From assembly GCA_965205975.1 (NCBI GenBank), contig OZ242195.1, positions 2,912,001-2,976,000 of the forward strand: a stretch of 64,000 nucleotides of DNA. Reading direction: 5' to 3'. The notes under the pieces were generated by a model, which saw only the letters and a program-made list of their open reading frames with translations, was not told the DNA's origin and did no database searches. Position numbers and translations under genes: made by a program. Below are positions 37,738-42,432 of the stretch, piece after piece. The first letter of the stretch is position 1; each line of letters starts with the position of its first letter. This DNA is from Candidatus Latescibacterota bacterium (GTDB lineage: Bacteria; Latescibacterota; UBA2968).

Positions 37738-38967
37738 TTAGCAGCCTTCAAATAACGCGATTGCACGAGTATATTCCTGCATCCACTGGGCTACCTCTCG
37801 GGAGGGTGAAAAACGGGTCTGTGCTGACTGTCTTGCTGCTTCGCCGAGTTGAGTACGGAGAACCTCATTTTCAACCAAGAGACTCAAGCACTCTGCCAAA
37901 TTATCGACGTTTTCAGGTGGTACGAGAAGCCCTGTAACCCGATCTTCAATCAATGCGCGTGCGCCATCAATGTCGGATGCAACAATCGGAAGCCCCGCTC
38001 CCATCGCTTCAAGCAGGCTATTTGGCGATCCTTCATAAAGCGACGGAAATGCGTAGATGTCCATTTCTTTTAAAAATGGCATCACATAGCGGTGAGCAAC
38101 GCCACCAGTAAATGTTATATGGGACTCTAAGTTTAGTTCTTTGATGCGATCTTCCCATAATTTTGCTTCCTGCTTATCGTGGATCACCCCGACTGCAAGC
38201 AGATGCGCGTGCGGATGCTTGCAATGTACCTGAGCAAATGCTTCTATAAGATGGTGAAAGCCCTTTACGCGACGTAAAACACTTGCGGTTCCAATCAGAC
38301 ATTTTCCTCGCGATTTCAAATCTGCGAGCATCGCACCAAACATACGCAGGACACCGCTATGATCACCTTTCGCATTGGCGAGACGAAATGAAACAAACTC
38401 GGTAGGATCAAAAGCATTTGGTAGAACTGTTGACATGGAGATATCCGTGATCTGCTTTGCCATGCCGAGATATTCCTCTGTCACAGATGTTACGAGATCG
38501 GCATGCTCCAATATCCAGACCAGTGTAGGAACCATCCTGCAATCGAAGCGAGTTGTCACCACATCTCCCCCTCGAAGGCTGACGACGACGGGGCGGTTTG
38601 CGGCTCGCGCAGCAAGAACAGCAATCAAACCTGGGGGAAGCGCAAAAATTCCATGAAACAGGTCAAAATTGATTTCTGAATGGAGTTTCTCAATATAAAA
38701 CCCAATTTCTCGCAGTTCAGACGGATCGGGATAATTACCGAAAGATCGTTTACTGAGAGATGGGTAAGTTCGATGGACCACAAGACCATCTTCAACCGAT
38801 GACTTCACATCTTCACCTACGGTTATACTTCCCGGTGTGATTACATGGACATCGACATTTTGGGCGGCAAGATTGCGTGCGATCCGACGAGTCGCAGTGG
38901 CGACGCCACCTATGCAGACAGGTGGGTACTGATAAGTGATGATACAAACTCTGATTTTTCGTGACAT
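37738..38967 (-). CDS. GT4 glycosyltransferase downstream of the lasso precursor
   Basis: YPPVCIGG, VKG, PSLYEGSPNSLLEAM (EX7E); RBS GGGAG. Confidence 0.88.
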   Translation of the reverse strand: MSRKIRVCIITYQYPPVCIGGVATATRRIARNLAAQNVDVHVITPGSITVGEDVKSSVEDGLVVHRTYPSLSKRSFGNYPDPSELREIGFYIEKLHSEINFDLFHGIFALPPGLIAVLAARAANRPVVVSLRGGDVVTTRFDCRMVPTLVWILEHADLVTSVTEEYLGMAKQITDISMSTVLPNAFDPTEFVSFRLANAKGDHSGVLRMFGAMLADLKSRGKCLIGTASVLRRVKGFHHLIEAFAQVHCKHPHAHLLAVGVIHDKQEAKLWEDRIKELNLESHITFTGGVAHRYVMPFLKEMDIYAFPSLYEGSPNSLLEAMGAGLPIVASDIDGARALIEDRVTGLLVPPENVDNLAECLSLLVENEVLRTQLGEAARQSAQTRFSPSREVAQWMQEYTRAIALFEGC

Positions 38968-39047
38968 AGACCTTGCTCCCAATTATTGAAATGAATTGAT
39001 CGAAATGTATTCTGTATCCCGTACCAATCTTGCGATATATCTGAAAA

Positions 39048-39083
39048 TTTGGGTTGGAAGAGTGATCAGATCTCCCAACCCAA
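39048..39083. terminator. Stem-loop immediately downstream of the precursor gene
   Basis: ttgggttggaaga-gtgatcaga-tctcccaacccaa. Confidence 0.65.
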
Positions 39084-39119
39084 TGAGGCTAAATTCAAAA
39101 GTCGTTGGATGTATCCTCA

Positions 39120-39233
39120 TCAACAAGAACAGTCGTGGGGGTACCAATCCACATCAAGAAGCCATCCCCCCCAATTCCAACCCGTCAGGTCCTCAATGCG
39201 ACCAAGTCGTTTAACACTGGGAGTCTGGTACAT
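39120..39233 (-). CDS. Lasso peptide precursor (37 aa, MYQTPSVKRLGRIEDLTG-WNWGGWLLDVDWYPHDCSC)
   Basis: RBS AGAAAGGAGGTGA; leader YxxPxV...GxxxxxT motif with Thr at -2; core Trp1 and Asp9; double stop; adjacent RRE gene. Confidence 0.82.
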   Translation of the reverse strand: MYQTPSVKRLGRIEDLTGWNWGGWLLDVDWYPHDCSC

Positions 39234-39378
39234 ACGTATCACCTCCTTTCTTATAGATTTTCGGGCAAAGTACAGAAATAACCACTGACCGGTCAATGCG
39301 TTAGCTAACGTTATGATTCCAACTGCTTTGCCCTATTTCTGATCTATCGCAATTGAATTCCACACTTAAAAAAAGAGC

Positions 39379-39698
39379 TCAAGTCTGAACCTGGATAAGG
39401 TGAAAGTCTTGTAGATCGTTCAACAAATTATCCAGATCTCGTTGCAGTATATTAGCGTCCACGTCAAACTCCGTTTGTAACTTGGCGAGGGTATCGCCTG
39501 GTTGGTCCACAGCCAACATTATCTCTATCATCTCTGTAGCTGTGGTATTCAGTTCAAAATATACTCCAGTCACTGTGTCAACCAGAAGGCCCTGTTCCTC
39601 AATACGCGAAAACTCAACGATGTATCGTGCTGCCCTGCAACACCGATGAAATCGCGTCCGATGTCAGGCAATGCTTGAATTTTTGAGATCCTCTCCAT
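39379..39698 (-). pseudogene. PqqD-family RiPP recognition element (lasso B1), frameshifted
   Basis: RBS AAGGAG + ATG 39698; the RRE-like sequence IVEFSRIEEQGLLVDTVTGVYFELNTTATEMI...EFDVDANILQRDLDNLLNDL lies in the -1 frame. Confidence 0.78.
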
Positions 39699-42228: not shown

Positions 42229-42303
42229 TTTACGTCTCCAGTGGTCAGTTTTACTAAAGTTGTGCTCCGCTCTTTCTGAAAAAAATAAGGTGCATAATTT
42301 TAC

Positions 42304-42319
42304 AGCAATAACCGTGCCA
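42304..42319 (-). promoter_or_regulatory. Sigma-54 (-24/-12) promoter
   Basis: Minus strand TGGCACG-GTTA-TTGCT, an exact consensus, 75 nt upstream of the permease ATG. Confidence 0.8.
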
Positions 42320-42349
42320 AAGTCATGAAAAAAAATTCAAATGCTGAAA

Positions 42350-42362
42350 TAACAATAAGTTA
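42350..42362. promoter_or_regulatory. Possible IHF site
   Basis: TAACAATAAGTTA, one mismatch to WATCAANNNNTTR, in an AT-rich tract between the promoter and the activator sites. Confidence 0.45.
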
Positions 42363-42395
42363 AGAAAAATTTCTTAAAATTGATGTACGCGAAAG

Positions 42396-42432
42396 TGTCC
42401 GATTTTGGGACAGTAGTGTCCGAAAATGAACA
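42396..42432. promoter_or_regulatory. Tandem palindromic activator (bEBP) binding sites
   Basis: TGTCCGATTTTGGGACA (42396-42412) and TGTCCGAAAATGAACA (42417-42432), 21-bp period. Confidence 0.65.

Follow-up and report, generated by a model that had tools for sequence, protein, structure and literature searches.

A lasso peptide locus with a GT4 glycosyltransferase gene is most likely a recent deletion remnant of an ordinary lasso cluster

Results

Organization of the locus

The locus occupies part of a 64,000-nucleotide stretch of DNA, the whole of which is termed the window here. Its features, given from the promoter side to the terminator side, are as follows.

42394..42435, strand not given: repeated GTGTCC-type element upstream of the promoter (hairpin z -4.3)
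42305..42319, minus strand: sigma-54-type -24/-12 promoter motif, exact match
39817..42228, minus strand: MacB/FtsX duplicated (ADOP-like) ABC permease, 803 aa, intact
39621..39698, minus strand: lasso cyclase stub, codons 1-26 of ~622, opening a chimeric ORF of 42 aa, the end of which is at 39570
39614..39621, strand not given: probable deletion junction, with ~3.55 kb absent relative to sister genome G007
39379..39618, minus strand: remnant of the RRE gene (lasso B1, PqqD family), codons 10-88, in a frame other than that of the upstream start
39120..39233, minus strand: lasso precursor MYQTPSVKRLGRIEDLTGWNWGGWLLDVDWYPHDCSC, 37 aa, with a predicted 18-aa leader, 19-aa core and Trp1-Asp9 ring
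39051..39081, minus strand: hairpin 3' of the precursor gene (region z -2.4; 0 of 200 shuffles equally stable), conserved in G007
37738..38964, minus strand: GT4 glycosyltransferase, 408 aa, intact; residues 311-319 carry what we take to be the E-x7-E motif
37695..37727, strand not given: terminator-like 13-bp hairpin with T-runs on both strands, common to the convergent core gene

A preliminary description of this DNA had placed these elements in one co-oriented series, running from a sigma-54-type motif through permease, RRE stretch, precursor, hairpin and GT4 to a terminator, and this order is confirmed, with every element on the minus strand. The promoter motif (42319-42305) is the sole match without mismatch among 11 at one mismatch or fewer (5.3 expected), scored against what we take to be the sigma-54 -24/-12 consensus, and the GTGTCC-type element upstream of it is likely to be an activator-binding site. 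The PqqD/RRE-coding stretch was recognized by a domain match with an E-value of 4.5e-10. No ABC ATPase occurs in the ORF list of the locus. Elsewhere in the window, positions 30211-37192 hold a convergent RND efflux operon encoding a membrane-fusion protein, a 1,358-aa AcrB-family protein and an outer-membrane efflux protein, which is syntenic in G007.

The precursor peptide

The precursor fits a lasso peptide. Its leader reads Y2-x-x-P5-x-V7 with Thr17 at position -2, which corresponds to the reported lasso leader motif [Y/W]xxPx[L/V/I/F/A] (PMC13381572) and to the penultimate leader Thr described for lasso precursors (PMC10368454). Cleavage after Gly18 of the precursor is predicted to release a 19-aa core closed into a Trp1-Asp9 ring. 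YxxP, Thr at -2 and an acidic acceptor within core positions 7-9 are all in place; a ring from Trp1 to residue 9 (there Glu9) has been reported for fusilassin and cellulassin (bioRxiv 10.1101/2020.11.25.399105). A core starting at Gly18 itself was rejected because the acceptor would then fall at position 10. The leader model NF033521 scores the precursor at 15.3 bits, below its cut-off of 19. Identity to the G007 precursor is 94% in the leader and 53% in the core, and core residues Asp9, Gly4-Gly5-Trp6, Pro14-His15 and Cys17-Ser18-Cys19 are conserved in all three alleles (window, G007 and P0077).

A longer cluster in sister genome G007

A search for GT4 orthologues in 41 genomes returned one that stands out, at 94% identity, in G007. 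Contig C79 of that genome matches window positions 29187-39618 at 91%. Past position 39618 it encodes a complete RRE (88 aa), an NAD-dependent epimerase (370 aa), a B2 peptidase (166 aa) and the C-terminal 117 residues of a protein of the Asn_synthase family. Contig C97 matches window positions 40532-39620 at 98% and then enters an open ORF of 493 aa, likewise from the Asn_synthase family. The 622-aa protein P0018 is 98% and 99% identical to these two cyclase halves, which indicates that they belong to one cyclase gene. Combined, the order in G007 is permease, Asn-synthase-type cyclase, B2, NAD epimerase, RRE, precursor and GT4, as read on two contigs bridged by P0018, with a gap of ~33 nt in the cyclase and the 5' permease link missing; none of the DNA read held a whole intact cluster on one contig. 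Precursor (A), B1, B2 and cyclase (C) genes are all present.

The G007 B2 protein scores 35.5 bits with NF033537 (cut-off 33) and 36.8 bits with PF13471 (cut-off 26) and has the Cys and His motifs, and the intact RRE matches TfuB1 and TbiB1. The cyclase exceeds the PF00733 cut-off, yet reaches only 25.8–30.4 bits with NF033535, for which the cut-off is 525, and its next homologues are 24–41% identical over partial alignments. Together with the score of the precursor, this marks precursor and cyclase as divergent members of their families. The epimerase is 78–89% identical to single copies in the window genome (G000), where the gene adjoins ATP synthase genes, and in four other congeners, and may therefore be a passenger in the cluster; for one member of its protein cluster, the source gives the name UDP-glucuronate 4-epimerase. 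Proteins of the G007 type carry the NCBI label Gemmatimonadota bacterium.

A decaying cluster was one of three readings in the preliminary description, which had added that a relative with a longer cluster, from which B2 and C were simply deleted in the window, would speak against its headline of a RiPP operon tailored by a GT4 alone. G007 carries that longer cluster, B2 and C included, and the decaying-cluster reading is supported by it.

The junction between cyclase and RRE

The RRE had been taken for an intact gene. Its codons 1-9 are gone, and no in-frame start codon lies upstream of the domain. Instead, a ribosome-binding site and the ATG at 39698 start the 42-aa ORF, in a frame other than that of the RRE. 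Over its first 26 codons, 25 of 26 residues are identical to the N-terminus of the G007 cyclase (tblastn, 96% over 26 aa), which places a piece of the cyclase inside the window; the length of the stub was set by alignment with cyclases of 622-629 aa. The earlier statement that the 64 kb contain no cyclase is thus correct for the remainder of the gene and has to be amended for the stub at 39621..39698. The match to G007 contig C97 ends at window position 39620 and that to C79 begins at 39618, and these ends show that in the window codon 26-27 of the cyclase is followed, in a different frame, by codon 10 of the RRE. Relative to G007, ~3,551 nt are missing, of which ~1,214 are the epimerase block.

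The gene content, the junction and the absence of B2 and C from the genome are shown by the sequences, whereas all chemistry, export and the biological nature of the deletion are inferred. The explanation that we favour, with a probability of about 0.86, is that the locus is the deletion remnant of an ordinary lasso cluster, from which most of the cyclase, B2 and the start of the RRE went missing, most likely by a recent deletion that joined the two codons out of frame. With ~3.5 kb of core genes missing, the strain would make no lasso peptide. The dN/dS ratio of the RRE remnant is 0.27, compared with 0.22 for the GT4, and gives no sign of relaxed selection in the RRE yet; this fits a recent loss and is not proof of one.

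The main rival to a deletion in the living strain is mis-assembly, in which the cluster is complete in that strain and 3.5 kb were lost during assembly, or two strain haplotypes were joined. The chimeric junction ORF is on record from one contig only, and relative to G007 the window looks like a mosaic, its DNA being 98% identical immediately before the junction and its RRE protein 77% identical immediately after it; both points favour an artefact, as would the broken cyclases on two other long contigs (P0065+P0067; P0072), which may be sequencing errors. However, no repeats flank the junction, where microhomology amounts to 2–5 nt at most, depending on the parent allele and as deduced from protein alleles only; congeners show different deletions at the same site, and no other part of the assembly contains the missing genes. 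An artefact is accordingly considered unlikely.

Other copies of the cassette

Homologue searches found eight full-length cyclases on record (622-637 aa) and several fragments. The 90% cluster of the GT4 has 14 members, 13 of them outside the window genome, and seven of the 13 are paired with a cyclase or B2 on what is presumed to be the same contig; the pairing was read as DNA in G007 and deduced for the other copies from identical contig sizes. All six orthologues on other contigs longer than 20 kb are paired in this way, and the remaining six of the 13 lie on contigs of 8.7 kb or less. One contig of 69,318 bp also carries precursor P0077, one residue off that of the window. A further GT4 protein, P0059, differs from the window GT4 at one of 408 residues and is presumed to share a 463,958-bp contig with a fragment of the cyclase whose frame runs across the junction and stops at 252 aa, which makes the loss in the window look recent. 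Other strains may also be eroding.

These copies bear on a different reading of the locus, either as a new class of RRE-guided linear glycopeptides, the second option and the headline of the preliminary description, or as a repurposed remnant in which the RRE would restart as a 64-aa product and direct the GT4 to a precursor that has not been cyclised. It is true that the permease, precursor and GT4 genes are intact, that the precursor of the window is found on six contigs, and that the TGA of the 42-aa chimeric ORF is overlapped by a GTG at 39573. The restart, however, would drop residues 1-24 of 88, which align to the N-terminal part of TbiB1 (a region that we take to be its first two β-strands), no leader-removing peptidase is left, and the architecture has been seen once. 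With the RRE truncated and the relatives' long contigs carrying C and mostly B2, neither form of this reading is upheld, and we regard it as very improbable.

A class-wide cyclase search in 132 genomes found an orthologue in G007 only, with matches of 27–35% in nine other genomes. Searches for related loci yielded 146 candidate stretches with the GT4 in the genome contig collection and 254 with the cyclase in the metagenome contig collection, none of which was confirmed, and leader DNA patterns matched no stretch in either collection. One congener, G001, has a separate, unrelated lasso-type cluster (L061:8554-11193) with a PqqD gene, a Transglut_core3 B2, a cyclase in two ORFs, an HPr-kinase-like gene nearby and transposase fragments around it; no precursor was identified in that interval. 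In the distant B2 homologue P0005 (46%), the C-terminal 40 residues resemble a lasso precursor with a similar leader, possibly the result of read-through or of a gene-calling error.

Search for B2 and cyclase in the rest of the genome

The window genome is a single 5.56-Mb contig, rated 98.3% complete. None of 11 Transglut_core3 candidates and none of five candidates for the lasso B2 model proved to be a B2 peptidase, and the best tblastn hit had an E-value of 0.035. Custom profiles built from six cyclases, seven B2 proteins and three precursors were run against all six frames; the cyclase profile found the stub only, the B2 profile nothing and the precursor profile the one precursor only. Asn_synthase gave four matches, three of them short and weak and the fourth a 583-aa orphan at 1,382,313. 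Measured against a lasso cluster, the window locus has a fitting precursor, a 26-codon cyclase stub and an RRE that is not intact, and B2 is absent from the genome.

The remaining proposal of the preliminary description, a satellite locus whose precursor would be matured by B2 and C encoded elsewhere and then glycosylated, could appeal to the orphan Asn synthase, to a second PqqD-family ORF at 5,414,494 and to a genome short of 100% completeness, but it is removed by the genome-wide absence of B2 and of a cyclase orthologue, by the failure of the cyclase profile to match the orphan, by the truncation of the local RRE, and by a loose leader pattern that found one unconvincing frame within 10 kb of the orphan and none near the second PqqD ORF, and we hold it to be scarcely credible. 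The PqqD domain of a radical SAM protein, recognized by eye, was rejected as a partner, like the orphan and the second PqqD ORF. Genome-wide, the loose leader pattern returned at least 223 ORFs, mostly by chance, and this result was discarded.

Genomic site and promoter

The site is an island. The core genes that flank it (37208-37666 and a DUF2227 gene) are 71–157 nt apart in 15 of 20 congeners, with a spacing of 681 nt in G009 and 1,645 nt in G001; they are unlinked in G017 and G018 and lie on separate contigs in G007. In both G001 and G009, a broken copy of the permease runs directly into the same terminator hairpin, and GT4, precursor and RRE are absent. These are eroded alleles of the site (L082:265-545 in G009; L083:274-1433 in G001), in which pieces of the permease, with deletions inside them, abut the terminator, and no exact sigma-54 motif was found in either interval. 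The permease is probably older at the site than the lasso cassette, and the simplest reading is that C-B2-B1-A-GT4 arrived as a single cassette downstream of a sigma-54 permease unit that was already in place. Alternatively, it is possible that G001 and G009 have both lost the cassette.

Genome-wide, there are 58 exact copies of the sigma-54 motif, six of which have GTGTCC-like upstream words according to an ad hoc pattern. The five besides that of the window precede, judged by eye, mostly permease, ABC ATPase and membrane-fusion-like genes, and the motif was dismissed as a RiPP-specific signal on the strength of its 58 copies and of the transporter genes behind most of the related ones. One of the motifs that share the upstream words precedes an apparent ABC ATPase gene, which likely explains why the locus has no ATPase of its own.

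The GT4 glycosyltransferase and its paralogues

The closest homologues of the GT4, orthologues at 91–99.8% identity, accompany lasso genes. The gene travels with the cassette, lies 155 nt behind the precursor and precedes the terminator, and the tail Ser and Cys residues of the peptide are conserved. No second domain was found in the protein, which is of the GT4 family and not a davasin-type GT2 resembling IgtG, and its closest solved structures are BshA-type small-molecule GT4s (E ~1e-15). Nineteen paralogues at 38–46% lie in 16 loci, which are not independent of one another and mix sugar enzymes with peptide-processing genes. A gene of the peptide-processing type occurs within ~5 kb in eight of the 16 (M50 peptidase in four, one of them scanned and three assigned by resemblance, C39 transporter in two and radical SAM in two), and many of the loci hold other glycosyltransferases, sugar-nucleotide enzymes and sulfotransferases. 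The leader pattern found no lasso-type leader in the 16 loci, and no flippase was seen among 60 Pfam-scanned neighbours, picked by eye from 222. We put the chance that the GT4 adds a sugar to the lasso peptide in the intact cassette just short of even, and the idea of a glycosylated lasso peptide may survive solely for that cassette in the relatives.

Several other loci with GT4 genes were also noted. Three candidate glycopeptide clusters (L037:8277-18729, L040:5724-10247 and L042:2080-12061) combine a GT28-GT4 fusion with another GT4 and with an ORF of 136-156 aa whose N-terminus, conserved up to the vicinity of a Gly-Gly motif, is followed by a variable tail; L037 and L042 also have an ABC transporter with a C39 peptidase close by. 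At L033:9393-13053, and also in L034, L036 and L039, a GT4 paralogue adjoins an M50-type HExxH peptidase (120 bits with the daptide model, for which the cut-off is 300) and a protein of 333 aa that matches no Pfam family and has Asp-rich motifs that we take to be reminiscent of terpene synthases. In the window genome, L045:816-12830 (G000 2,488,800-2,500,800) is a second accessory locus. It has a pair of ORFs of 116-117 aa that contain Cys and look secreted, genes of the ABC-2 permease, DsbA-like and heparinase-like types, and, in addition, two GT4 paralogues, a GT28 and a GT2. L046:6083-12307 (G000 2,157,000-2,163,300) encodes a GT28, a GT2, a 354-aa protein of unknown type and a GT4 (33%), together with an S8 peptidase that carries a fused peptide maturation domain resembling TIGR04066.

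Discussion

The locus carries a caution, in that an RRE, a precursor and a tailoring enzyme found without core enzymes can be a deletion scar and not a new RiPP class. In an intact cassette, with the order permease, C, B2 (followed by the epimerase in G007), B1, A and GT4, the RRE would bind the YxxPxV leader, B2 would cleave after Gly18 and C would close Trp1, or Phe1 in G007, onto Asp9. The tail cysteines may pair as a disulfide, the GT4 may glycosylate the peptide, with Ser18 or a tail Cys of the core as the most conserved candidate acceptors, and the permease, together with an ATPase encoded elsewhere, would export the product.

Tentatively, with the odds somewhat against the proposal as a whole, the relatives' cassette could specify a Trp1/Phe1-Asp9 lasso with a Cys-Ser-Cys tail that is glycosylated by a soluble GT4, in G007 possibly with a uronic acid via the in-cluster UDP-glucuronate 4-epimerase-like gene. 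This would be a third route to glycosylated lassos, and the GT4 would come from a clade that recurs in the genus beside peptide-processing genes (M50, C39 transporter, radical SAM) and is possibly a family of peptide glycosyltransferases. The intact cassette is a modest lead; it is small (A, B1, B2, C and GT4) and directly testable in E. coli, and, if the proposal is true, its soluble GT4, active on a lasso peptide, would be more convenient as a tool.

Glycosylation of RiPPs is described as rare, and the lasso cases compared below are reported to use a membrane GT2 or a nucleotidyltransferase (PMC11912497). In literature titles and abstracts, with subscription journals thinly covered, no lasso cluster with a characterised GT4 was found, which is weak evidence of absence. 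The intact relatives resemble the canonical split-B lasso clusters of fusilassin/fuscanodin and cellulassin (bioRxiv 10.1101/2020.11.25.399105) in having A, B1, B2 and C, the leader motif, Thr at -2, an aromatic residue 1 and an acidic residue 9; they differ in Asp9 in place of Glu9, a divergent cyclase and the extra GT4, and the window itself lacks C, B2 and the start of B1. Two cysteines confined to the tail recall the class IV lassos LP2006, pandonodin and felipeptins as described in PMC9266682, but here they are one residue apart (Cys-Ser-Cys) and the disulfide is putative. A GT4, Cao24, is also found within the cluster of cacaoidin, a glycosylated RiPP, with no role assigned to it in the available portion of that report (bioRxiv 10.1101/2020.05.20.105809); cacaoidin is, however, a lanthipeptide with three glycosyltransferases, and the likeness is one of description, not sequence.

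Among glycosylated lasso peptides, pseudomycoidin shares the tail Ser, but its sugar is reported to be placed on phospho-Ser by the psm cluster with the help of a kinase and a nucleotidyltransferase (PMC11912497, PMC9266682), neither of which is found in the present cassette. The davasin (igt) cluster likewise pairs lasso genes with a glycosyltransferase gene. Its enzyme IgtG is described as a membrane deacetylase/GT2 fusion, in contrast with the GT4 of the present cassette, in which no second domain was found. The reported IgtG-catalysed glycosylation of a Ser in the mature davasin lasso (PMC11912497) offers a model for how the intact cassette might act.
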